In this document: positions 3,045 through 42,647 of the stretch, piece after piece
Numbering within the stretch: the stretch's first letter is position 1
How the letters are laid out: each line of letters begins with the position of its first letter
From: Candidatus Omnitrophota bacterium
GTDB lineage: Bacteria > Omnitrophota > Omnitrophia > Omnitrophales > Aquincolibacteriaceae
Assembly (NCBI GenBank): GCA_043821445.1
Contig: JBDRCT010000037.1
Span: 49,703 to 113,702 of the forward strand
DNA length: 64,000 nucleotides
Reading direction: 5' to 3'
Notes under the pieces: model-generated
What the model saw: the letters and a program-made list of their open reading frames with translations, nothing else
Databases searched by the model: none
Told to the model about the DNA's origin: nothing
Made by a program: the position numbers and the translations under genes

Positions 3045-3787
3045 CCAGCGCGGAATTCAATAAAAAAAGCTTGGAAACGAACGGCGAGAACCCTGCCCAG
3101 GCATCTTCTGTTCGAAACGCGGCCTCAAACCATGGGTTTGAGACTATTTTCGGATGGGGTGTTTGCAAAGGCATGGGGGTCACGCTTAAAAATTTCTTGA
3201 CCTCTTATTTCCGGAAACCCGACGAGGGCGGCATCTTCACGGTCCAGTATCCGGAGGAGCGAGAAAGGCTGGTCGAGAATTTCAGGAACTTCCCTTTTCT
3301 CGTGTATGACGGCACGCCCGAAAAGGTCCGCTGTGTGGCCTGCGGGATCTGCGAACGGGAGTGCCCGACCAAATGCATTCATATTGAGATGGAGTTCGAC
3401 GCCGCGGTCCCAATACCTGTCAATTTCAGCAAAGCTGAAATTGGGGCCGTCCCGGCTCCCATTGATCAAAAGAAAATCATAGCCGGGACGGGAAAGCCGG
3501 CTCGAAAGCCGGCCGTATTCGATATTAATTACGGGCTTTGTATGAATTGCGGCATGTGTGAAGAGGTCTGCCCGTTCGATTCGATCTTCATGGACCACGC
3601 TTTTGAGGTGACGGCCCCGGAACGTCAAAGCAGCCTCGTCCGGCACAAAAAAGAGCTTCTGAAATCGAATGAGTATTTCAGGGAAATACGGCCGTCTCTG
3701 GCGTCGGCCATTGATCAGAAACGGAAAGCGGCGGAAGAGAAGAAAAAGGCGGCCGTTCCGCCGCCTGTAACGCAAGGACCCCGATGA
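3041..3787 (+). CDS. nuoI: NADH-quinone oxidoreductase subunit I (2x[4Fe-4S] ferredoxin) with an insert between the cluster motifs and a K/E-rich C-terminal tail
   Basis: ATGA overlap with the nuoD stop. CVACGICERECP and CMNCGMCEEVCP motifs. Confidence 0.88.
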   Translation: MTSAEFNKKSLETNGENPAQASSVRNAASNHGFETIFGWGVCKGMGVTLKNFLTSYFRKPDEGGIFTVQYPEERERLVENFRNFPFLVYDGTPEKVRCVACGICERECPTKCIHIEMEFDAAVPIPVNFSKAEIGAVPAPIDQKKIIAGTGKPARKPAVFDINYGLCMNCGMCEEVCPFDSIFMDHAFEVTAPERQSSLVRHKKELLKSNEYFREIRPSLASAIDQKRKAAEEKKKAAVPPPVTQGPR

Positions 3788-5085: not shown

Positions 5086-5598
5086 ATGGAAATATTAGAA
5101 ATGGCCGCAAAATTCGGAACGTACGCTGTGATGGCCGTGATCCTTGTGTTCGCCCTGGGCGTGGTCACACTCCGGAATCTTTTCCATTGCGCGCTTTGCC
5201 TCGCGGCCGCGCTGATCGGAACGGCGGTCATTTATGTCGTGCTCCAGGCGGAATACCTCGCCGCGATCCAGGTCCTTCTTTACGTCGGTGCCGTGGTCAC
5301 GCTCGTCATCTTTGCCATTATGCTGACAGAACACCTTGCGGGAAAGACCGTTCGCCAGAATAATTCCCAGAGCCTGCCGGCGATGGCGGGGCTGTTGGGC
5401 TTCGTGTTGCTCGTCACGGCTCTGATCTTGAAAACGCCCTGGCCGGTCACCCCGGCCGCGCTCAAAGCCAAGGTTTCGGTCATGGGGCTCGGCAAGGCCT
5501 TGATGGGAACTTATGTGTTCCCGTTCGAGGTCATCTCGATCGTCTTGATCGCGGCCTTGATCGGCACGGTGGTCATCGCCAAAAAGGATGATGTATGA
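5086..5598 (+). CDS. nuoJ: NADH-quinone oxidoreductase subunit J
   Basis: Hydrophobic NuoJ-like protein ([22 protein letters not shown]) in the expected operon position. Confidence 0.85.
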
Positions 5599-5909
5599 TC
5601 CTCCTCCCTTTGTCGCACATCCTGATCTTTTCTTTGCTTCTTTTCGCGATCGGCGTCTACGGCGCGCTCGTGCGGCGCAATATCATCGGCATTTTGATCT
5701 CGATCGAGCTCATGCTGAACGCCGCCAATATCAACCTGATCGCGTTCTCGAAATACACGTCCCTGGCCCCGGAGACCGGGCAGATCTTCGCCCTTTTTGT
5801 GATCGCGATCGCCGCGACCGCGGCCGCCGTGGGGCTCGCCATTGTCCTGGCCCTTTACCGCGTCCGGAAAACCGTTCAAGCCGATGAGGTTCATTTATTG
5901 AAATGGTAA
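5595..5909 (+). CDS. nuoK: NADH-quinone oxidoreductase subunit K
   Basis: Overlaps the nuoJ stop. Conserved [18 protein letters not shown] motif. Confidence 0.9.
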
Positions 5910-9411: not shown

Positions 9412-9428
9412 TAAAGGATAAGAAAATG

Positions 9429-9534
9429 AACCCCGTTAGACCTTTTGAAATCAGTCTCAATCGCATGGATGTAAAAGAAGCTATGAACAAAAGCAAAACG
9501 AAATTTATTATTAAAGTGGAGGTCTAACGGGGTG
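9429..9534 (+). promoter_or_regulatory. Inverted 13-nt arms (AACCCCGTTAGACC ... GGTCTAACGGGGTG) bracketing the SD and GTG start of nuoN
   Basis: Left arm 9429-9442, right arm 9521-9534. The right arm contains the nuoN GTG (9532) and lies just 3' of a GGAGG SD. A 33-codon sORF (9426-9527, MNPVRPFEISLNRMDVKEAMNKSKTKFIIKVEV) with its own AAGGA SD runs between the arms. The same arms recur at 29014-29124. Confidence 0.5.
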
Positions 9535-10938
9535 AACGCTGTTGAAAGTTTGAAATATTTTATCCCCGAGCTGGTGCTCTTGGGCGGCGCGGTCGCGACG
9601 TTCACGCTGGATTTTTTCCTGAAGCGAAAGAAGCTCGTGGGAGAATTCGCCCTGCTCGTGATCGTGCTTGCGCTCTGCCTTGTAAAAACGCCCGCACAGC
9701 CCCTGCATCTTTTCTTCGGCATGTTCGAGCTGGATACCTTCGCGCATTTTTTCCGCTACTTGGCGCTGGGCGCCGTCGGCGTGACGCTTCTCATCTCGCT
9801 CGGCTACTCGCCGCTCAAGGACCGTTATGACGGCGAGTTCTACGGCCTTTTTCTTTTTATGGCGTTCGCCCTTATCACGGTCGCGGCAGCGAACAATCTC
9901 CTGATGATCTTTATCAGCATCGAATTCGTTTCCCTGCTCTCGTACCTTCTTGTGGGATTTCTGAAGAACGACCCCAGATCCAAAGAAGCGGCCATCAAGT
10001 ATCTTCTCTTCGGAAGTGTTTGCTCGGCCGTCATGCTCTACGGGATGTCCTTTCTCTACGGCGTCGCCGGATCGCTCGAACTTCCCGCCATCGGGAACGC
10101 CCTCTTTGATGCCCCCTTTAAGCCGCTGGCGATCGCGGCCGTTCTTTTCTTTTTTGTCGGACTGGGTTTTAAGATCTCCATGGCGCCTTTCCATATGTGG
10201 GTGCCCGACGTTTACGAAGGCGCGCCGACCCCGGTCACGGCCTTCCTGACCGTCGCGCCCAAAGCGCTCGGCTTCGCGGTCCTGACGCGCGTGTTGGACA
10301 TGATCTTCCTCAATTTCTACAGCGTCTGGAGCCCCGTACTCGTCGTCCTCTCGATCCTGACCATGACGATCGGCAACATCACCGCCGTCTCCCAATCGAA
10401 CATCAAGCGATTCTTGGCCTATTCGAGCATCGCGCAGGCGGGCTATATCCTCATGGGCCTCGCGGTCTTTACCATGCTTGGCCGTGCCTCGACCCTGATC
10501 TATTTACTTGCTTATCTCTTGACGAACCTCGGCGCCTTCGCGGTCGTCCTCTTCGTCGGCGGAGAGACCGGGAGCGATTCCCTGGACGCCTACGCGGGCC
10601 TTTCCGAGCGTTCCCCCGCCGCCGCGGCCATGCTCACCGTCTTTTTGCTCTCGCTTGCCGGTCTTCCTCCGTTCGCGGGATTCATCGGAAAATATTATGT
10701 GTTCGCGGCGGCCATTCAGGCGAAGTTCATTACGCTTACGATCGTCGCCGCCATCAATAGCGTGATCGCGGCCTATTATTATTTCCGGATCGTCCGGCTC
10801 ATGTACCTGACACCTCCCACAGGCCCCGCCTTTCCCTCTCCCTCAAGGTCCCTCGCGATCGTTCTCTGGATCCTGTTCCTGGGCGTTCTTGCGATGGGCA
10901 TTTTCCCGGGCTTTTTCATCACCCGTATCCTGGGATAA
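9532..10938 (+). CDS. nuoN: NADH-quinone oxidoreductase subunit N (GTG start)
   Basis: Antiporter-like subunit (WVPDVYEGAPTPVTAFLTVAPKA); last gene of the operon. Confidence 0.93.
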   Translation: MNAVESLKYFIPELVLLGGAVATFTLDFFLKRKKLVGEFALLVIVLALCLVKTPAQPLHLFFGMFELDTFAHFFRYLALGAVGVTLLISLGYSPLKDRYDGEFYGLFLFMAFALITVAAANNLLMIFISIEFVSLLSYLLVGFLKNDPRSKEAAIKYLLFGSVCSAVMLYGMSFLYGVAGSLELPAIGNALFDAPFKPLAIAAVLFFFVGLGFKISMAPFHMWVPDVYEGAPTPVTAFLTVAPKALGFAVLTRVLDMIFLNFYSVWSPVLVVLSILTMTIGNITAVSQSNIKRFLAYSSIAQAGYILMGLAVFTMLGRASTLIYLLAYLLTNLGAFAVVLFVGGETGSDSLDAYAGLSERSPAAAAMLTVFLLSLAGLPPFAGFIGKYYVFAAAIQAKFITLTIVAAINSVIAAYYYFRIVRLMYLTPPTGPAFPSPSRSLAIVLWILFLGVLAMGIFPGFFITRILG

Positions 10939-11037: not shown

Positions 11038-11931
11038 ATGAATAAGCCTTGCCGTTGGTACGGGGTCCCGGAAAAAGCGCTTCTTCAGGATTTCCTCTTC
11101 ACGGTCCTGAAGGACCTCAAGAAAACAAAGATCAAGCAGATCCTGAAATTCGGCTCCGTCCACGTCAACGGCCGCGAGGTCACTTGGTACCGGCACCCCT
11201 TGAAGCCCGGCGACAAGGTCGAGATCCTGGGGAAAGAACGCGCTTCCGCGGAAAGATCCAAATCAGAGCTGGGCCTTGTGATCGTCTATGAGGACGAGGA
11301 TCTCCTGGTCGTGGAAAAACCTGCGGGGCTTCTGACCATGGGGACGGAACGCGAAAAAGAGGCGACGCTTTATTTTATGCTGGGCGAATACGAACGCTCT
11401 AAAGCCAAGGGCGGCCGGGACCGTGTTTTTATCGTGCATCGCCTGGACCGGGACGCTTCGGGATTGATCGTCTTCGCGAAAAACGACGCCGCAAAGCACG
11501 TGCTCCAGGGCCACTGGGAACTCGTCACCAAGAAATACTATGCGATCACGGAAGGGACTCCGGAGAAAAGATCGGGAACGATCGAGAACTATCTCAGGGG
11601 AGACGATTTCAAACGGGTCTACAGCGTTCCTAAAAACCACCCCGAAGCCCGACATGCCGTCACGCATTACCGCGTGCTCCGCGAGAACGGGGGCTACGCC
11701 CTCCTGGAAGTCCAGCTCGAGACCGGCCGCAAGAACCAGATCCGGGTGCATCTCTCCGGCCTCGGGTGCCCCATCATGGGCGATGAGAAATACGGCGCCA
11801 AGTCCGACCCTTTTCGCCGCCTGGCGCTCCACGCCTGTTTTCTCTCATTTCCCCACCCCGCCACGGGTGAGCTCAAGACCTTCCGGTCCTCTCTCCCCGC
11901 TCCTTTCAAAAAGATTTTCCCGACTACGTAA
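11038..11931 (+). CDS. RluA/RluD-family pseudouridine synthase with N-terminal S4-like domain
   Basis: VVEKPAGLLTM, HRLDRDASGLIVFAKN, NQIRVHL motifs. An in-frame upstream start at 10984 is possible. Confidence 0.8.
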   Translation: MNKPCRWYGVPEKALLQDFLFTVLKDLKKTKIKQILKFGSVHVNGREVTWYRHPLKPGDKVEILGKERASAERSKSELGLVIVYEDEDLLVVEKPAGLLTMGTEREKEATLYFMLGEYERSKAKGGRDRVFIVHRLDRDASGLIVFAKNDAAKHVLQGHWELVTKKYYAITEGTPEKRSGTIENYLRGDDFKRVYSVPKNHPEARHAVTHYRVLRENGGYALLEVQLETGRKNQIRVHLSGLGCPIMGDEKYGAKSDPFRRLALHACFLSFPHPATGELKTFRSSLPAPFKKIFPTT

Positions 11932-21906: not shown

Positions 21907-22260
21907 TCAGCAAATCAAAGCCCTCTTCAAGCCACTCAGCATCTTTGAAAGATCTGTTAGCCTATTTTCTAGATCTTTATATTTTTCTATTTGAAAATAA
22001 TTTTGTCTGGAAGCTATTTGCAAAATAGCTAGGCATTCATAAATGGAGCCACGAGACATGTCTATAAAGCGTGCAAAATCTTTCTTACTCCTCGCAGATC
22101 CCTCCGATATATTAGCCGCAATAGATACAGCCGCTCTTCTTAGTTGGCTGGTTAATCCGAACTGTTCATCTTTAGGAAAAGCCCTTGTTAAAACATAAAT
22201 TTCGTTCATAAACTCTAACGCTTTTTGGTAAACCTCTAACTTTTCGAATCCAAACCCCAT
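21907..22260 (-). CDS. Four-helix-bundle protein (TIGR02436 family), paralogue 2
   Basis: AFPKDEQFGLTSQLRRAAVSIAANISEGSAR signature. Flanked on both sides by GTTCA/TGAAC direct-repeat tracts. Confidence 0.75.
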   Translation of the reverse strand: MGFGFEKLEVYQKALEFMNEIYVLTRAFPKDEQFGLTSQLRRAAVSIAANISEGSARSKKDFARFIDMSRGSIYECLAILQIASRQNYFQIEKYKDLENRLTDLSKMLSGLKRALIC

Positions 22261-28184: not shown

Positions 28185-29015
28185 CTACCGCATCCTGAGA
28201 TAGTGACGGGTCAGTGCGATCAGGAAAAGCGGTGTGAGTAAAATCCCCGAGAGGGCTTCGACCGCCGCGACGCCGCGGACCCAGCCCATCGGAAGATAAT
28301 CCCCATACCCCACGGTCGTGTAAGTCATAATGCTCAGATAAAACGATTCGAAAAGATCGATCTTCTGAACAAAACTTCCGGTCAGGACCGTTCCGGACAT
28401 ATGATAACAAAGCGCGCTCAGGATGATCACGGTGCAGGCGATCATGAAGGTGCGGAACGGCAGTTCCCCGTAACCCCAGATCAGACGGTTCAGAGAACCG
28501 AAAAACCAGCTAAAAAAAGTCCGGACCCTTCCTTTCCGGGAGGCCCGTTCGAGACCGACCGCTTCCGGAAGACTTGTCTTCGTTTGCGTGAAAGTTCTCC
28601 ATAAACGCACGAGCCGGGCGTCCTTGGCGCGTTGGTAGCAATAGGAAAATTTCGTGAAATCCCCCTCTTTTTCATAGAGGAGCGCGGCTTCGCTGAAGAG
28701 CGTTTCCGCGTAAGCATGGTCTTGAGCCACGAGGGCCTGGATCGCGGCGGATTCATTGCGCGTCGCGGCGTTACGGAGCGGCTGCCAGCCGGTGTGAATA
28801 TTCCAGCATGTCGCGGCGGAGGAAAAACAGACTGCGGCTTTGAGGGGTTCGTTCGCCTCCTGAAAAAGCTTGGCCGCCCGGTCAAAGGTCTGGAACGCCT
28901 GGTCGATCTTGCTTTCGCCGCGAAGGCGGTGCGCCTCGCGCTCCAGAGCGATCGCTTGCTCGATCTTGCTGGTGGCTGCGGCTGACTCCGCATGAAGAAG
29001 CGTTTTCGGATCCAC
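28185..29015 (-). CDS. Two-TM potassium channel with an N-terminal TPR-like cytoplasmic domain (GTG start)
   Basis: TTVGYGD selectivity filter between two hydrophobic helices at the C-terminus. Alpha-helical, repeat-like N-terminal ~150 aa. Confidence 0.8.
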   Translation of the reverse strand: MDPKTLLHAESAAATSKIEQAIALEREAHRLRGESKIDQAFQTFDRAAKLFQEANEPLKAAVCFSSAATCWNIHTGWQPLRNAATRNESAAIQALVAQDHAYAETLFSEAALLYEKEGDFTKFSYCYQRAKDARLVRLWRTFTQTKTSLPEAVGLERASRKGRVRTFFSWFFGSLNRLIWGYGELPFRTFMIACTVIILSALCYHMSGTVLTGSFVQKIDLFESFYLSIMTYTTVGYGDYLPMGWVRGVAAVEALSGILLTPLFLIALTRHYLRMR

Positions 29016-29124
29016 CCCGTTAGATCTCCTATACCCTCGGAAGAGTTCTCTTCTTAATTAAAAAGACCAACCCGTCTTACCTCGGAAACCTCTCCTCCCA
29101 ATTGCATCAGAGATCTAACGGGGT
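29014..29124 (-). promoter_or_regulatory. Inverted 13-nt arms (ACCCCGTTAGATC ... GATCTAACGGGGTG) bracketing the SD and GTG of the K+ channel gene
   Basis: Same arm sequence and same position relative to SD/GTG as at 9429-9534. The interior sequence is unrelated. Confidence 0.5.
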
Positions 29125-29653
29125 CCATGGCGAGCATTCTACTCAATTTGTCCCGCGTCCTCCAGCGAAGTTTCTGCTTCGGGCACATCTCAGCTTAGAT
29201 TATTATATTTTCTCATGGCTTAAGAACTCCGCCGGGAAGTGTGTTTCGCCAACGTTTGCCATGCCCCACCGAGGCATGGCTGCACTCGCAAGCGTCGGCC
29301 TCGATGAGAAACCCTGGCTCTCGGCCTCCTTAGCGCGTCTCAACACACTTCCCACCTCCGCGGTTCTCAAGAGAAGGCGAAGGGTTGAGACGAGGCACGC
29401 TGGAAGGACGAGCGGGCAGGGACTTCTCGAAGAGAAGGAGCGAGGACTGGAGGGCGAACAAGGGAATCCACGCCGGGGATTCCCGAGTGGTGACGAGACG
29501 CAAACCTTAAGCCTTCTCTTGCGTAAACGCATGGAATCAAGATCGAGGTGTTGGAAATCCGGGTGGGATTTTTACTGCCCAATTCTTTATCTTCTTTTCC
29601 ATATGGTGAATTGGACTGTCCTGATTACCCGTTATTTTTTAAATGAAAGAGAA

Positions 29654-37160: not shown

Positions 37161-38918
37161 TCAATTTTCCGTTAATTGGCGGAAGATCTCCTGGGCTATA
37201 ATTTTGTGCCCATATCGGTTAGGATGAGAATGAGCTTCCGCGAGGAGAAAATTTTTATTTTTGTTAAATATACCTTCCAGGTTCAAATAGTAGATTTCCG
37301 GATGTTCCCGGCGCAAATTCGCCAGAAAAATTTCTGTTCGCTCATCATTCAAGCCCGTTGAAAAGTCAAGCTGCGGGATGAAAACCACCTTGATCCCCTT
37401 TTCTTTACATAAGGTTATCACTTCTTTAAAAAGAAAGTCCGGGTTCTCAATGGACGTCGCTCGGTCGCCGGAGTGCCATGCACCCAGGAACCTTTTTCTG
37501 ATGTTTTCCACAGCCATGAATAAATAACTTTTACATAAAAAGTCGTACAGGTACACGATCTCTTTGATCGGCTCCTTGAATTTAAGGGCGGCATACAAGA
37601 GCCGGCCGTTCTTGATCCAGTCGGAATTCTTTTCCATCACCCTCTTGGCTCTCTGGTATAAAGCATAATCCTTCTCAAGCCGTCCTTTGTTATTCTCCTC
37701 TTTCGGATAGGCTAGCCTTCCATAAAATAATATGAAGTCAGGGTTCATTTTGTTCAATACTTCTTTCAAATATATGTTCATCTCTACGCTGTAAAAGTTA
37801 TTCATCCCGGGAAGGACTAGGGGAATGACCATGTTTTTCTTTTGATTCCACGCATTCAATTTCTTTTCCAAAAGGGCCGGGAAAACTTGGGCCAGGGAAA
37901 GAGCTCCGATCTCAAGGGGGGAAGATCCCGCGCAGAGGATCCGCGTGGCGTGTTCGGAATTCGCTATCAGGTATTTGTTCGGCCGGTCACCAAAGTAAGA
38001 CTTGATCGTGAGCTCCTTCGGATCGTTGAAGGCCCCAAAAAAATTAGTGGATATCTCGAATCGCCATTTGGGTTTCAGTTGACCGATGTCCAGACCCGGA
38101 TCATGGGGGTAAGCCACTCTTAGAAATGCTTCCAGGAAAAACAGGGGGAAGACAAAAAAGAGTAACTTTCTGAAGAAGCGCTTTTCAGAACATCCCAGGG
38201 CAAGAAAGATCAGCACTCCGAGGGAAAGGAACATTTGCGAGATGAATTTGTAAAAATAGAGCAGGGCAAAATCAGCGTTGAATAAAATTCTCCCCGCAGG
38301 ACCCAAAATTTCCAGCCTGTTAAGCGTCACTTCTTTTTGCGACGGGAGGAACAAGCCGAAGTTATAATTTACGGGCTCAGGACCCAGCGGGATCTTTTCC
38401 ATGAATTTTCCGTTCATATAAACAAGGACCGTTTTTTCTGTCAGATTGCATTTCAAACGCGATTGGAAACCTTCCGATCGATTAAACCCTGGTATCATGC
38501 ACAAAGGTGAGAGTGGATATTTTATCGTTGAGACATATTCTTCCTGACCCTGCCCATCCTTACAATAAACCCCCGAGGGGCTGCTATATCCGGATAGAAT
38601 GAAGCTGCATCGATCACAAAATCGTATTTCGACCCTTCGGCAGGCCAACCGTGTCAGGTTGACTTCGATGTCGTACCGGGTCGGGTCACGGGGTTGACCC
38701 GCGTCCGTCGCCTTAGGATGTTCATATCCCCATACCTCATTGAGTTCATAGAGCGACCGCCACTTTTTTCCCAGGGCTGGGATTTCTTTTTCGCAGAATA
38801 GGATCGAAGAAGCTGCGACGATCATAAGGACGAGCGAATAGATTGCGGTGCGTGATTTGTTTTTATGTAATGCTTCTGTAAGGGATGCGACTGAAGATCT
38901 TTTCATAATGTTGATCAA
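37161..38918 (-). CDS. Membrane protein, paralogue A: TM + Cys-rich ecto-domain + 2 TM + DltD/AlgJ-like SGNH domain
   Basis: TM at aa ~22-42 and 2 TM at aa ~220-270. C-terminal ILCAGSSP (SGNH block I-like) and HSHPNRYGHKIIAQEI (block V-like). 585 aa. Confidence 0.7.
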   Translation of the reverse strand: MINIMKRSSVASLTEALHKNKSRTAIYSLVLMIVAASSILFCEKEIPALGKKWRSLYELNEVWGYEHPKATDAGQPRDPTRYDIEVNLTRLACRRVEIRFCDRCSFILSGYSSPSGVYCKDGQGQEEYVSTIKYPLSPLCMIPGFNRSEGFQSRLKCNLTEKTVLVYMNGKFMEKIPLGPEPVNYNFGLFLPSQKEVTLNRLEILGPAGRILFNADFALLYFYKFISQMFLSLGVLIFLALGCSEKRFFRKLLFFVFPLFFLEAFLRVAYPHDPGLDIGQLKPKWRFEISTNFFGAFNDPKELTIKSYFGDRPNKYLIANSEHATRILCAGSSPLEIGALSLAQVFPALLEKKLNAWNQKKNMVIPLVLPGMNNFYSVEMNIYLKEVLNKMNPDFILFYGRLAYPKEENNKGRLEKDYALYQRAKRVMEKNSDWIKNGRLLYAALKFKEPIKEIVYLYDFLCKSYLFMAVENIRKRFLGAWHSGDRATSIENPDFLFKEVITLCKEKGIKVVFIPQLDFSTGLNDERTEIFLANLRREHPEIYYLNLEGIFNKNKNFLLAEAHSHPNRYGHKIIAQEIFRQLTEN

Positions 38919-39023
38919 GCGGTATCAGGCCCCTGGTCCAACAGGTTCATTATAAAAAACGTCCGTTCGAGAACGTCAGTGAACTTACCGATCATTTGTG
39001 GATATCGAGCGATCCTTTTTCTG

Positions 39024-40784
39024 TCAATTTTCCGTTAATTGGCGGAAGATCTCCTGGGCCATCACCTCATTTCCATAGTTATTAGCATGAGCCCTATCTC
39101 TCGCGATGAGAAAATTTTCATACCGTTTAAATATACCTTCCAGGCTTAGATAATAGATCTCCGGATATTTTTGGCGGAAATTCACCAAAAAATTTTCTGT
39201 GAGCTTGTGATTCGAACGCGTTAAAAAGTTAAGCTGCGGAATGAAAACCACCTTGATCCCCTTTTCTTTACATAAGGTTATCAAGGCTTCAAAAAGAAAG
39301 TTCGGGTTCTCAATGGACGTCACTCGATCGCCGGAGTGCCATGCACCCAGGAACCTTTTTCTGATGTTTTCCACGGCCATGAATAAATAACTTTTACATA
39401 GAAAGTCGTATAGATACACGATCTCTTTGACCGGCTCCTTGAATTCAAGGGCGGCATATAAGAGCCGGTCGTTCTTGATCCAGCCGGAATTCTTTTCCAT
39501 CACCCTCTTGGCTCTCTGGTATAAAGCATAATCCTCCTCGAACTGTGCTTTATCATACTCCTCATAAAAGGGGCTCAGCGTGCCATAAAATAACATGAGG
39601 TCAGGATTGATTTTTTTCAATACTTCTCTCAAATAGACATTCATTTCTACATTCCTAAAGTTATCGCTCCAGGGAATGATGATGGGGATCACGATGTTTT
39701 TCTTTTGATTCCACGCATTCAATTTCTTTTCCAAAAGGGCCGGGAAATCTTGGTCAAACAAAGGGGGTCCGGCCATAAGAGGGGAAGAGCCTGCGCAGAG
39801 GATCCGCGTGGTGTGTTCGGGACTCGCTATCAGGTATTTGTTCGGCCGGTCACCAAAGTAAGACCTGATCGTAAGCTCCTTCGGATCGTTGAAGGCCCCA
39901 AAGAAATTAGTGGATATTTCGAATCGCCATTTGGGTTTCAGCCGATCGATATCCAGACCCGGGTCATGGGGGTAAGTCACTCTTAGAAATATTTCTATGA
40001 ATACCAGGGGAAAAACAAAAAGCAGGACCTTTCTGAAAAAGCGTCTCTCAGAACATGCCAGGGCAAGAAAGATCAGGACGCCGAGGGAAAGGAACACTTG
40101 CGAGATAAATTTATAAAAATAGAGCAGGGGAAAGTTGACATGGAATAAAACTCTTCCTTTTGGGTCGGAAATTTTTAGCTTATCAAGTATCACTTCTTCT
40201 CCTGCCGGGGGGATAGCCAAACCGAAACTATCATGGAGGGACTCAGGACCTAGCGGGATCTTTTCCGCGAATTTTCCGTTCACGTAAACAAGAACCGTTT
40301 TTTCTATCAGATCGCATTTCAAACGCAATTGGAAACCTTCCGATCGTTTAAACCCTGGTATCACGCACAAAGGTGAGAGCGGATACTTTATCGTTGAGAC
40401 ATATCCTTCCCGGCCCTGTTCATCCTTACAATAAACTCCCGAGGAGCTGCTATATTTGGACAGAATGAAGCTGCATCGATCACAAAATCGTATTTCGGCC
40501 CTACGGCAAGCAGACCGTGTCAGGCTGACTTCGATGTCGTACCGGGTCAAGTTACGAAGCTGACCTTCTTCCATCGCCTTAGGGTCCTCATATCCCCACA
40601 CTTCGTTTAATGCATAGAGTGATCGCCACTTTTTCCCCTGGGCTGCTATCTCTTTTTCACAGAATAGGATCGAAGAAGCTGCGACGATCATAAGGACGAG
40701 CGAAAATACGGCGATGGGTAATCTGCTTTTGCTTAATATTTCCGTGAGGGATGCGACTGAAAATCTTTTCATAACGTTGATCAA
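39024..40784 (-). CDS. Membrane protein, paralogue B of the tandem SGNH-like array
   Basis: Same architecture as A. The C-terminal ~100 aa and the spacer are nearly identical to the other copies. Confidence 0.7.
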   Translation of the reverse strand: MINVMKRFSVASLTEILSKSRLPIAVFSLVLMIVAASSILFCEKEIAAQGKKWRSLYALNEVWGYEDPKAMEEGQLRNLTRYDIEVSLTRSACRRAEIRFCDRCSFILSKYSSSSGVYCKDEQGREGYVSTIKYPLSPLCVIPGFKRSEGFQLRLKCDLIEKTVLVYVNGKFAEKIPLGPESLHDSFGLAIPPAGEEVILDKLKISDPKGRVLFHVNFPLLYFYKFISQVFLSLGVLIFLALACSERRFFRKVLLFVFPLVFIEIFLRVTYPHDPGLDIDRLKPKWRFEISTNFFGAFNDPKELTIRSYFGDRPNKYLIASPEHTTRILCAGSSPLMAGPPLFDQDFPALLEKKLNAWNQKKNIVIPIIIPWSDNFRNVEMNVYLREVLKKINPDLMLFYGTLSPFYEEYDKAQFEEDYALYQRAKRVMEKNSGWIKNDRLLYAALEFKEPVKEIVYLYDFLCKSYLFMAVENIRKRFLGAWHSGDRVTSIENPNFLFEALITLCKEKGIKVVFIPQLNFLTRSNHKLTENFLVNFRQKYPEIYYLSLEGIFKRYENFLIARDRAHANNYGNEVMAQEIFRQLTEN

Positions 40785-40889
40785 GCGGTATCAGGCCCCT
40801 GGGCTAACAGGTTTATTATAAAAAACGTCCGTTCGAGAACGTCAGTGAACTTACCGATCATTTGTGGATATCGAGCGATCCTTTTTCTG

Positions 40890-42647
40890 TCAATTTTCCG
40901 TTAATTGGCGGAAGATCTCCTGGGCTATCACTTCATGCCCATAATTGTTAGTATGAGAGTTATCTATCGCGATGAGAAAATTTTCATACCGTTCAAATAT
41001 ACCTTCCAGGCTTAGATAATAGATCTCCGGATATTTTTGGCGGAAATTCACCAAAAAATTTTCTGTGAGCTTGTGATTCGAACGCGTTAAAAAGTCGAGC
41101 TGCGGGATGAAAACCACCTTGATCCCCTTTTCTTTACATAAGGTTATCAATGCTTCAAAAAGAAAGTCCGGGTTCTCAATGGACGTCGCTCGGTCGCCGG
41201 AGTGCCATGCGCCCAGGAACCTTTTTCTGATGTTTTCCACGGCCATGAATAAATAACTTTTACATAAAAAGTCGTATAGATACACGATCTCTTTGACCGG
41301 CTCCTTGAATTCAAGGGCGGCATACAAGAGCCGGTCGTTCTTGATCCAGCCGGAATTCTTTTCCATCACCCTCTTGGCTCTCTGGTATAAAGCATAATCC
41401 TCCTCGAACTGTGCCTTGCTGCGCTCGTCTCTAAAGGGAACCAGCATGCCATAGAATAATATGAGATCAGGATTCATTTTGTTTAATACTTCTTTCAAAT
41501 ATATGTTCATCCCTAAGCTGTAAAAACTAGCCATCCCGGGAAGGACTAGGGGAATGACCATGTTTTTCTTTTGATTCCAGGCATTCAATTTCCTTTCCAA
41601 AAGGGCCGGGAAAGCTTGGGCCAGGGAAAGGGCTCCGCCTTCCAGGGGGGAAGCTCCTGCGCAGACGATCCGCATAGCGTGGTCGGGGTTCGCTACCCGG
41701 TATGTGCGCAATTCGCCAGAGCCAGACTCGAGCGTGAGCTCCTTCGGATCGTTGAAGGCCCCAAAAAAATTAGTGGATATCTCGAATCGCCATTTGGGTT
41801 TCAGTTGACCGATGTCCAGACCCGGATCATGCGGGTAAGCCACTCTTAAAAATGCTTCCAGGAAAAACAGGGGGAAGACAAAAAAGAGTAACTTTCTGAA
41901 AAAGCGCTTTTCAGAACATGCCAGGGCAAGAAAGATCAGCACTCCGAGGGAAAGAAACCCTTGCGAGATAAGCCTGAAAAAAATGAGCGGGACGAAATTA
42001 ATGCTGGATAAAACCTTCCCCTTTGGGTCGGAAATTTCCAGCCTGTTAAGTATCACTTCTTTTCCCACCGGGTGGATCACTAAACCAAAACTATCATGGA
42101 CGGGCTCAGGACCCAGCGGGATCTTTTCCATGAATTTTCCGTTCATGTAAACAAGGACTGTTTTTTCTACCAAATCGCACTTCAAAAGCAGCTTGACGCC
42201 TCCTAACCGTTCATGCCACGCCATCACGCGCGTCGATGGGTACGGATACTCTGCCGTCGAGACATATGTTTCCCGGCCTTGTTCATCCTTATAATAAACT
42301 CCTGAGAGTTTGCTATCTCCGGACAGAACAAAACTGTATTTATCGCAAAATCGTATGGCGATCCTATGGTAGGCAAACCGTGTCAGGCTGACTTTGATGT
42401 CATACCGGGTCAAGTTACGAAGCTGTCCCTCTTCCATCGCCTTAGGGTCCTCATATCCCCACACCTCTTTCAGCTCATAGAGCGATCGCCACTTTTTTTC
42501 CAAGACTGGGATCTTTTGATCGCAGAATAGGATCGAAGAAGCTGCAATGATCATAAAGAGCAATGAAAATACGGCGATGAGTAGTCTGCTCTTGCTTAAT
42601 ATTTCCGTGAGGGATGCGACTGAAGATCTTTTCATAATGTTGATCAA
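40890..42647 (-). CDS. Membrane protein, paralogue C of the tandem SGNH-like array
   Basis: Same architecture; most divergent ecto-domain (Cys pattern partly lost). Confidence 0.7.
   Translation of the reverse strand: MINIMKRSSVASLTEILSKSRLLIAVFSLLFMIIAASSILFCDQKIPVLEKKWRSLYELKEVWGYEDPKAMEEGQLRNLTRYDIKVSLTRFAYHRIAIRFCDKYSFVLSGDSKLSGVYYKDEQGRETYVSTAEYPYPSTRVMAWHERLGGVKLLLKCDLVEKTVLVYMNGKFMEKIPLGPEPVHDSFGLVIHPVGKEVILNRLEISDPKGKVLSSINFVPLIFFRLISQGFLSLGVLIFLALACSEKRFFRKLLFFVFPLFFLEAFLRVAYPHDPGLDIGQLKPKWRFEISTNFFGAFNDPKELTLESGSGELRTYRVANPDHAMRIVCAGASPLEGGALSLAQAFPALLERKLNAWNQKKNMVIPLVLPGMASFYSLGMNIYLKEVLNKMNPDLILFYGMLVPFRDERSKAQFEEDYALYQRAKRVMEKNSGWIKNDRLLYAALEFKEPVKEIVYLYDFLCKSYLFMAVENIRKRFLGAWHSGDRATSIENPDFLFEALITLCKEKGIKVVFIPQLDFLTRSNHKLTENFLVNFRQKYPEIYYLSLEGIFERYENFLIAIDNSHTNNYGHEVIAQEIFRQLTEN

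Follow-up and report, generated by a model that had tools for sequence, protein, structure and literature searches.

Two start-codon hairpins in a Candidatus Omnitrophota genome as probable insertions of one MITE-like element family

RNA thermometers and riboswitch platforms mask the SD and the start codon of an mRNA with a helix, and in thermometers of the ROSE and fourU type this helix is weak, contains mismatches and melts in the physiological range. Riboswitches carry a conserved aptamer for their ligand upstream of the platform. REP/REPIN sequences have a GTAG-type head, no target duplication and an associated RAYT gene. The attC sites of integrons have the core-site order 5'-RYYYAAC ... 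GTTRRRY-3' and extrahelical bases, again with no duplication, and a bulge-helix-bulge has two 3-nt bulges with a 4-bp helix between them at the exon-intron junctions. Elements of the IS1380 and piggyBac type make a 4-bp duplication, have CC(C) termini and a cognate DDE transposase, and restore the target by precise loss; the target of piggyBac is the palindromic TTAA. The Correia elements have terminal inverted repeats (TIRs) of ~26 bp, a TA duplication and a Neisseria-specific sequence.

MITEs are known to act on gene expression by way of promoters, IHF sites, RNase III/E processing, gene inactivation and sRNAs, a list in which start-codon regeneration does not appear (PMC10969869). In the Correia/NEMIS elements of Neisseria the TIRs fold into an mRNA hairpin that may change expression and is cleaved by RNase III, and these elements may also act as sources of promoters; Rickettsia palindromic elements (RPEs) persist in protein-coding genes as in-frame peptide insertions (PMC10969869). 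The Chunjie element of Geobacter uraniireducens is 178-235 bp long and has 21-bp TIRs and 9-bp direct repeats (PMC3184786).

The window, that is the whole 64,000-nucleotide (64-kb) stretch of DNA that we analysed, comes from a Candidatus Omnitrophota MAG. The original prediction had described identical inverted arms in front of two unrelated genes, nuoN (9532-10938, plus strand) and an Ion_trans_2 potassium-channel gene (28185-29015, minus strand), and we can confirm them: ACCCCGTTAGA occurs exactly four times in the window and forms two inverted pairs, at 9430-9440(+)/9523-9533(-) and 29014-29024(+)/29114-29124(-). The arm spacing is 82 and 89 nt, and there are no other such ACCCCGTTAGA pairs in the window. 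If one mismatch is allowed, the window contains 5 matches versus 0.68 expected, a number that 0 of 100 shuffles reach, and the claim that the shared geometry is not due to chance is borne out. On the coding strand both genes show the same order, in which an SD-like GGAGG or AGGAG is followed by (G/A)TCTAACGGG and a GTG; thus, nuoN is preceded by GGAGG-TCTAACGGG-GTG and the channel gene by AGGAG-ATCTAACGGG-GTG. The sequences between the arms had been called unrelated, and in an alignment of the two interiors the similarity is indeed confined to the arms.

Both pairs are bounded by 4-bp direct repeats, and a blind search of the window for inverted repeats of at least 11 bp with flanking 4-bp direct repeats returned only these two sites. 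For nuoN the repeats are TGAA at 9427-9430 and 9533-9536 (plus strand). For the channel they are TCCA at 29011-29014 (gene-proximal) and 29124-29127 (distal), that is, TGGA on the gene (minus) strand. The layout on the gene strand is TGAA|CCCC...GGGG|TGAA for nuoN and TGGA|CCCC...GGGG|TGGA for the channel. Directly outside the upstream arm there is an in-frame ATG at both genes: at 9426-9428 for nuoN, made of A9426 and the upstream duplication, and at 29128-29126 on the minus strand for the channel, at the distal duplication. In both cases the last base of the repeat unit is the G of the GTG. The nuoN GTG (9532-9534) consists of G9532, with which the element ends, and the TG of the downstream duplication; the channel GTG (29015-29013) is rebuilt at the gene-proximal duplication. 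The full reading is ATGAA[102 bp]TGAACGCT for nuoN and ATGGA[109 bp]TGGATCCG for the K+ channel.

The copy in the nuoN start codon (9431..9532, plus strand, with target-oriented polarity +) is thus 102 bp long and has the termini CCCCGTTAGA...TCTAACGGGG. Its left TIR (9431..9443, +) reads CCCCGTTAGACCT; its right arm (9518..9532, +) carries the SD-like GGAGG at 9518-9522 and a TAA at 9525-9527. This TAA ends, 5 nt before the GTG, a 33-codon leader ORF (9426..9527, +) whose start is the displaced ATG, preceded by the native SD AAGGA (9414-9418), and which spans the whole element. The copy in the channel start codon is 109 bp long (29015..29123, minus strand); its distal arm (29109..29123, -) pairs with the gene-proximal arm (29015..29029, -), in which the GGAG is the complement of 29026-29029.

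Uninterrupted sites, ATGAACGCT and ATGGATCCG, are found in close relatives. For nuoN, whose homologues have 468 aa and the N-terminus MNAVES, the junction without the element reads ATGAACGCT or GTGAACGCT in four relatives (L119, L120, L121 and L125). In the first three, with NuoN 83-87% identical, ...ATGAACGCTGTTGAAAGT... is continuous, and L125 has a native GTGA overlap of nuoN with nuoM, as read from its sequence. In P0002, L126 and L127 the site is empty as judged by gene coordinates alone (nuoM and nuoN overlap by 4 nt), and in L126 and L127 the coordinates indicate a native overlap of the GTGA type. In a relative with 93% identical NuoN, the called nuoM and nuoN overlap by 4 nt as well (a matter of gene coordinates, not of DNA). 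We considered the NuoN homologues with a GTG start as additional occupied sites and rejected them, as they have native GTGA overlaps with nuoM instead. Relatives of the K+ channel have the N-terminus MLAMDPKT, several homologues have an unbroken ...AMDPKTP..., and the relative L123 (86%) shows the empty site GCCATGGATCCGAAG. Because relatives carry uninterrupted sites, both loci are insertions that separated the A of the original start codon from its TG. No examined relative has the nuoN copy, which is therefore young. By contrast, the channel insertion is old; it is found at the same position and with the same TGGA duplication in L124 (81% amino acid identity) and L128 (75%), and is absent from L123 and others. 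Such a distribution implies that copies were lost precisely or that the site was hit more than once.

To see how far these termini extend, two sets of sequences were scanned. A scan of one genome per species with the pattern CCCCGTTAGA-N68-98-TCTAACGGGG gave at least 118 loci, and an independent scan of metagenomes gave 120 further ones. Altogether, more than 260 copies have these termini, and their MAGs belong to at least 12 phylum-level lineages, where both the breadth and the variability refer to copies that match the 10 terminal bases fixed in the search pattern. All sequences of the family are MAGs or metagenome contigs, and the genome-scan hosts among the matches listed are all MAGs. These hosts include, among the matches listed, Omnitrophota, many lineages of Patescibacteria, Planctomycetota, Thermodesulfobacteriota/deltaproteobacteria, Nitrospirota, Spirochaetia, Cloacimonadota, Stahlbacteria, Edwardsbacteria, WOR-3, Bdellovibrionales and two gammaproteobacterial bins. 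In the viral contigs and plasmids that were scanned we found neither copies nor an autonomous element with these termini.

Exact 4-bp duplications flank 71 of 128 genome copies among the matches listed (shuffle mean 10.6, maximum 21) and 70 of 133 metagenome copies (shuffle mean 15.4), and no duplications of 5 or 6 bp were seen in either set. Among the 262 copies listed, the Hamming distance between the flanks is 0 in 142, 1 in 34 and at least 2 in 86; the last group, about one third, has no recognisable duplication. The TIR is exactly 13 bp long. Its positions 1-10 are set by the search; positions 11-13 vary between copies and are complementary in 94, 87 and 72% of cases (31-48% expected), and from position 14 on the complementarity is at chance level. 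The median length is 101 bp, with a range of 80-141 bp among the copies listed that is partly set by the method (arm spacing fixed at 68-98 nt, extraction allowing 60-125 nt), and there is no long ORF. Two subfamilies, of 23 and 12 copies, have common interiors at separate loci. The majority of interiors occur only once in the sample; there are 180 singleton copies, and their interiors are unrelated.

Considering the size, the TIR, the duplication of fixed length, the empty sites and the amplified subfamilies, we take the arm pairs to be the TIRs of a non-coding, MITE-like element of about 100 bp that has an R|TNAA target and entered both start codons (probability about 0.85). The finding in the window would then be two independent insertions of one mobile-element family, which appears to be undescribed. 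A literature search by sequence yielded only primers and oligos and no account of these termini, and searches on MITEs and start codons, Chunjie, IS1380/piggyBac and bacterial tRNA introns turned up no account of the family.

The insertion accounts for the geometry. The element entered between the first and the second base of the start codon and duplicated 4 bp of R|TNAA, leaving the old ATG upstream. Its last G and the duplicated TG form a new GTG, the conserved terminus TCTAACGGG serves as the spacer, and the variable part of the arm, in these Omnitrophota copies, presents GGAG(G) at SD distance. Two unrelated genes thus have the same geometry because the insertion itself provides the GTG, the spacer and the SD word. 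Among the copies listed, an SD-like word in the proximal arm is found only in Omnitrophota, and because of this the SD is a local property and not part of the family design. A purpose-built device, proposed as the cause of the geometry, thus gives way to insertion of a mobile element, given the duplications and the uninterrupted sites in relatives.

Alternatively, the conserved 11-13-mer could be the operator of a host regulatory protein that binds at the initiation regions of a regulon; the original prediction had named a protein-binding site as its alternative. Two genes carry the sequence in identical form, and dimeric DNA-binding proteins typically recognise inverted repeats. However, the half-sites are 82-89 bp apart and accompanied by target duplications, relatives of both genes do without the sequence, and it is found across at least 12 phylum-level lineages in all contexts: in promoters, intergenic and coding regions and tRNA genes. 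The sole plausible binder would be a candidate transposase or recombinase, and we regard a host operator as extremely improbable.

We analysed the target on the basis of unique duplications. Among the copies listed, 115 of 139 are TNAA in one orientation, and in 111 of these 115 the base at -1 is a purine (G 74, A 37; the background being G 17% and A 30%). The target is therefore an asymmetric 5-mer, R|TNAA, which includes GTAAA, (A/G)TGAA and GTCAA (= TTGAC); in the window the targets are A|TGAA for nuoN and A|TGGA for the channel. Relative to the interior, the duplicated word lies on the same strand in 15 of 15 and 11 of 11 copies and in all smaller clusters. We found no positional motif that separates the two element ends in the copies listed. 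Insertion is thus strictly orientation-specific despite the symmetric 13-bp arms. Such strict polarity is unusual for a TIR element and, like the covarying arm positions 11-13, atypical of simple TIR/DDE elements.

Since a single orientation is used despite symmetric arms, and since arm positions covary, we also considered that the element is mobile and is moved in a way that does not involve a classical TIR/DDE transposase. A site-specific recombinase could act on a circular form, with the junction ...TCTAACGGGG-TNAA-CCCCGTTAGA... recombining with R-TNAA pseudo-sites; a single-strand hairpin intermediate is another possibility. In the circular junction of the first version, the 13-bp inverted arms would surround an asymmetric core. 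The polarity with respect to an asymmetric 4-nt core holds in every multi-copy subfamily, the target base at -1 resembles the G with which the element ends, hardly any copy uses a palindromic core such as TTAA, no transposase lies nearby in the flanks searched, and positions 11-13 vary and still stay complementary, which may mean that pairing between the arms matters. On the other hand, no recombinase was found either, and a 4-nt overlap would be unusual for tyrosine recombinases. The duplicated 4-mer varies within a subfamily (TAAA and TGAA; CGGG and TATG elsewhere), as expected for a staggered cut. Flanks with one mismatch differ at scattered positions and look like decay (by eye, in 8 non-matching pairs of the 23-copy subfamily). 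A non-classical mover is perhaps the case, and we would rather doubt it.

The arms had been tied to start codons, and at the level of the family this does not hold: of the more than 260 copies most lie elsewhere, as judged from the copies listed. ORF interiors are avoided, as 21 of 65 copies listed are deep in an ORF of at least 100 aa versus 79% of control sites; by a stricter count 7 of 138 copies listed are in a restorable ORF, 3 of which look like real genes. Intragenic copies are accordingly rare (about 2% of the copies listed). The three cases, L082, L163 and L175, are exactly in-frame, stop-free insertions of 37, 33 and 35 codons, in which the translated arms read NPVR...SNGV. By eye, and with no family search, their hosts are Memo-like (L082), an AAA ATPase with the insertion between the Walker A and B motifs (L163) and an MBL-fold protein (L175).

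Start codons make up 14 of the 19 duplications of the TG class in the genome copies among the matches listed; this share is weaker in the metagenome set (7 of 18). We rejected active targeting of start codons: the odds ratio of 6.6 under a loose control falls to 2.7 (p = 0.048) when RTGAA-matched controls are used (17 start and 7 other sites versus 75 and 82). Target preference together with purifying selection suffices to explain the excess. The association with promoters is stronger. In 13 of 15 TTGAC insertions the duplicated TTGA forms the first four bases of a TTGAC[A/G/C] hexamer with a TANNNT 16-18 bp further on, compared to 18% promoter-like sites among control non-ORF TTGAC sites (p = 3e-8), and this -35 association was replicated independently, with 7 of 8 cases at exactly 17 bp. 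The occupancy of -35 hexamers may reflect either real targeting or survival bias in compact genomes.

What does such an insertion do to translation? We modelled 171-176-nt mRNAs of the two genes. The arms are predicted to form a helix of 15-16 bp and about -28 kcal/mol (duplexes of -27.9 and -28.4 kcal/mol), and the elements have folding z-scores of -3.6 and -6.3. The claim that the arms occlude the SD and the start holds in silico: at 37 C, the predicted probability that the SD is unpaired is 0.12 for nuoN and 0.02 for the K+ channel, and the ATG of the reconstructed empty nuoN site is predicted to be 0.82 unpaired. In the mRNA, pairing of the arms would thus bury the SD and the GTG, with a presumable effect on expression. 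If the upstream arm is held single-stranded, the predicted accessibility of the nuoN SD is 0.44; opening the distal arm of the channel copy gives 0.85 for the start codon and only 0.11 for the SD.

These values fit a model in which ribosomes that start at the displaced ATG (in nuoN, at the native SD and coupled to nuoM) would run into the upstream arm and thereby unfold the helix. For nuoN, these ribosomes would then stop at the TAA within the terminal TCTAACGGGG, 5 nt before the GTG, and could re-initiate in a coupled manner, which gives the proposed chain nuoM -> leader ORF -> nuoN by helix opening and termination-reinitiation. A leader ORF that ends at the terminal TAA is present in nuoN, L022, L023 and L124, and L062 shows complete in-frame read-through. 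For the channel the coupling model appears weaker, because its leader ORF ends 41 nt upstream of the GTG and the SD is still predicted to be largely paired when the distal arm is open. The effect on translation would be a by-product of the insertion, perhaps relieved by translation of the leader ORF from the displaced ATG.

The original prediction had interpreted the hairpins as a translational gate, and we asked whether a dedicated or recruited gate, opened by temperature, a ligand or a factor, could explain them. In its favour, a stable predicted helix covers the SD and the G of the GTG. Also, the orthologous channel copies are conserved in a suggestive way: the window and L124 are identical at 31 of 31 arm positions, compared to 58% identity at fourfold sites of the adjacent gene, and their interiors are nearly randomised, with weak similarity only (z = 2.7). 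All three orthologous copies retain the GGAG of the proximal arm, opposite a G.U-compatible partner. This arm now carries the SD and the start of the channel gene. However, in L128, where the interior is visibly homologous, three changes in the arms break pairs without compensation. Because the L124 arms are identical and the L128 pairs broken, the arms evolve more slowly than the interior, yet their pairing is not strictly maintained. A thermometer is unlikely because the SD accessibility is almost constant between 20 and 55 C (predicted to go from 0.08 to 0.19 for nuoN and from 0.024 to 0.016 for the channel). The helix is perfect and of transposition origin, and it has no conserved aptamer or thermometer motif, unlike thermometers and riboswitches. 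A riboswitch is unlikely as well, given the unrelated interiors and a search of Rfam at permissive thresholds (E<=10) that gave no hit for either window site. Moreover, the insertion fully accounts for the geometry, start codons are not the site of most family copies listed, and the young nuoN insertion is absent in the 93% relative (gene coordinates) and in the 83-87% relatives (junctions read). A gate as the explanation is therefore unlikely; gating is possible only as a side effect or a later exaptation of the insertion.

A subclass of the family is linked to tRNA genes. About 25 copies listed that have no duplication agree in their junctions, ...TTYA|element|CRRG.... Of 265 copies listed, 8 contain a complete tRNA gene (Val, Ala, Thr or Pro), as do none of the shuffled controls; 7 of these 8 elements have the TTYA|element|CRRG junctions, and the eighth, L158, has the close variant TTCA|element|TAAG. 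The notion that the interiors are tRNA relics in general was rejected, with only these 8 of 265 copies listed containing a tRNA. Other members of the subclass (L213, L188 and L189) are within a larger intergenic repeat of ~200 nt. In five cases (L065, L067, L088, L191 and L228) the element is flanked by the two halves of a different tRNA gene, which is split in the anticodon loop. Removing the element together with 6 extra nucleotides restores a 73-nt cloverleaf in L067 and L228 (ARAGORN); hand parsing of the loop implies 4 extra nucleotides in L065 and L088, and L191 resembles L067. Either these split tRNA genes are dead, or the insert is removed at the RNA level.

The latter would fit an intron-like element that is excised from the RNA with religation of the exons, such that insertions into start codons and RNA genes are harmless. 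Deletion of the element and one flank copy does restore the original sequence, the cloverleaves around the anticodon-loop copy are intact in at least 5 tRNA genes, and L067 and L228 differ by compensatory changes in the anticodon stem. On the other hand, copies strongly avoid the interior of ORFs, and with splicing there would be no need for the three intragenic copies to be in-frame and stop-free, as they are. Many copies lie on -35 hexamers, which are not transcribed, the tRNA-hosted copies have no duplication and leave 4-6 extra loop nucleotides, and the interior has no conserved ribozyme-like core. We also rejected, by inspection, an archaeal bulge-helix-bulge intron: the junctions have a 2x2 internal loop beside a continuous 13-bp helix and no staggered 3-nt bulges. 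An intron-like nature of the family is thus very improbable.

Coming back to the MITE-like element, a putative mobilising enzyme would act in trans. We found no transposase or autonomous element with these termini in ~1.5 Mb of flanks of ~240 loci, and Pfam revealed no transposase among the 10 least obvious ORFs of the window. An all-against-all clustering of ORFs, for 118 and then ~240 loci, gave housekeeping families only and no recurrent neighbour gene. Long pairs of termini were considered as an autonomous element and rejected, since they are neighbouring small copies; at L213, with three copies, only metabolic genes lie in between. Short-read MAGs often lose IS copies.

Among known systems, Correia-like bacterial MITEs are similar to the present element in that both are ~100-150 bp long, non-coding, co-transcribed and equipped with TIRs and a short duplication (PMC10969869). 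Identity with Correia/NEMIS was rejected: the present TIR has 13 bp (10 fixed and 3 covarying) and a different sequence, the duplication is 4 bp at R|TNAA, insertion is orientation-specific, and many phyla are hosts. The in-frame, stop-free copies in L082, L163 and L175 resemble RPEs; however, RPEs are ~150 bp long, confined to Rickettsia and frequently intragenic, whereas the present family is rarely intragenic and its sequences are unrelated. Chunjie comes from a host group that overlaps with the present hosts, and was rejected for its 21-bp TIR and 9-bp repeats (PMC3184786). REP/REPIN-RAYT was rejected as well (there is a 4-bp duplication, the termini are CCCCGTTAGA and no neighbouring gene recurs), and so was integron attC (the order of GTTAGAY and RTCTAAC is reversed whichever strand is read, and there are a perfect helix and a 4-bp duplication). 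IS1380/piggyBac fits in duplication length and CC termini, a partial likeness that serves as a lead only. The piggyBac TIR, CCCTAGAAAG, and the ISEcp1 IR, CCTAGATTCTACGT, both have a TAGA core, as do the present termini. On the other hand, the TTAA target of piggyBac is essentially unused in the present family, strict insertion polarity is, to our knowledge, no property of IS1380 or piggyBac, and no IS1380-type transposase was found in the flanks of the loci or among the 10 window ORFs searched with Pfam.

Taken further, the data tentatively suggest, as one conceivable picture, a hairpin-ended family in many phyla, possibly with a non-classical mover, that would settle preferentially in gene-start signals, both start codons and the leading 4 nt of sigma70 -35 hexamers, and regenerate these signals by its own structure (terminal G plus duplicated TG giving GTG; duplicated TTGA). 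One subclass would deliver tRNA genes to the anticodon loops of other tRNA genes that are still intact, and this would require removal at the RNA level.

For annotation, a GTG start after ...TCTAACGGG in these uncultivated lineages flags an insertion; the ancestral start and its SD are then ~105 nt upstream, and the hairpin in between should not be annotated as a regulatory RNA. The two sites show how compact genomes tolerate insertion even where an operon is most sensitive: duplication and terminal G rebuild the start codon, an SD can come from the arm, and translational coupling can persist through a leader ORF. The features of the family at large are one conserved terminus in at least 12 phylum-level lineages, strict polarity, -35 occupancy and tRNA cargo in tRNA genes. 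If they hold, an unknown mobilisation machinery would be common to Patescibacteria, Omnitrophota, Planctomycetota, Thermodesulfobacteriota and others, and the element would be a ready marker of recent horizontal exchange among these lineages.

The element is a MITE-like non-coding unit of about 100 bp. Family-wide, among the matches listed in the genome and metagenome scans (loci L001-L118 and L129-L248), the target is strong and asymmetric: R/TNAA, where the stroke marks the insertion point and TNAA is the duplicated 4 bp. A purine precedes the insertion point in 111 of the 115 sites among the matches listed (G in 74, A in 37). The target sites of the two window copies lie at 9426-9430 and 29124-29128. 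Among the matches listed, each multi-copy subfamily has a single insertion orientation relative to the target (15/15 and 11/11), despite the symmetry of the 13-bp arms.

Where a copy has TTGA as its duplication, those bases are the opening 4 nt of a sigma70-like -35 hexamer (TTGACA-N16-18-TANNNT). Among the matches listed, 13 of 15 such copies are on a -35-like hexamer, compared with 18% of matched control sites, and the metagenome set repeats this placement (7/8 at N17, again among the matches listed). The TTGA loci are L006, L012, L056, L057, L070, L074, L086, L094, L103, L159 (2 copies), L172, L194, L209, L230 and L243. Within the window's nuoN copy we also see a weak sigma70-like match directed into nuoN (9484-9511 (+), TGAACA-16-TATTAT, 9/12).

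Eight copies among the matches listed hold an entire tRNA gene (for Val, Ala, Thr or Pro): L043 431-539, L065 1140-1248, L067 1366-1476, L088 5057-5166, L191 1830-1936, L228 824-929, L033 4971-5060 and L158 627-736. They have no 4-bp duplication and share the junctions TTYA/.../CRRG. Five of the eight interrupt another tRNA gene, one half of which lies on each side of the copy; this gene is broken in the anticodon loop and has an otherwise intact cloverleaf.

The only convincing intragenic copies among the matches listed, L082 (1732-1838), L163 (2352-2446) and L175 (11392-11492), are all exactly in-frame and stop-free, adding 37, 33 and 35 codons, respectively; their arms translate as NPVR...SNGV. 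Judged by eye, the host proteins look Memo-like (L082), like an AAA ATPase in which the copy separates Walker A from Walker B (L163) and like an MBL-fold protein (L175).

In some genomes a conserved intergenic repeat of ~200 nt encloses the hairpin unit, for example gcaaggcgcgcaaaaactgaggag...cgATTCA, the unit, then CAAGgttgaagcg...cagatggacttttta (copies in L213 at 3583-3672, 5566-5656 and 11142-11232, L188 88-178, L189 530-620, L226 and L248). This repeat has no Rfam match, and no transposase was found near it at its loci. Very short versions of the element (23-64 bp, scarcely more than both arms) also occur, some with the 4-bp duplication (L035 3405-3435, L047 1262-1291, L066 2989-3014, L114 2982-3022, L116 4791-4820 and others), as do tandem and nested copies (L111, L137, L113, L027).

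Small repeats seem abundant in relatives of the source genome. Other palindromic intergenic repeats occupy the same junctions there, namely an AAATCCTAAATCC...GGGTTTAGAGTTTTGGATTT family and a nuoM-nuoN spacer that contains GGGATCCAGTCTGGATTCCCGCTTCCGCGGGAATGAC (repeats and spacer: L120 1355-1485, L124 880-1030; L119 1375-1490).

Elsewhere in the window, a 117-aa protein (21910-22260 (-)) matches the 23S rRNA-intervening-sequence protein (PF05635, 1e-36) and bAvd-like; homologues occur in about 5 element-bearing loci, none adjoining an element. Three tandem paralogous ORFs of ~585 aa each, with near-identical N-termini, lie at 37161-42647 (-); the one searched had no Pfam match.

Finally, similar interiors are found in L014 and L080, from MAGs assigned to Omnitrophota and Thermodesulfovibrionia, and in L043 and L067 (Spirochaetia and Parcubacteria). 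This likeness between MAGs assigned to different phyla reflects either a binning error or horizontal transfer.
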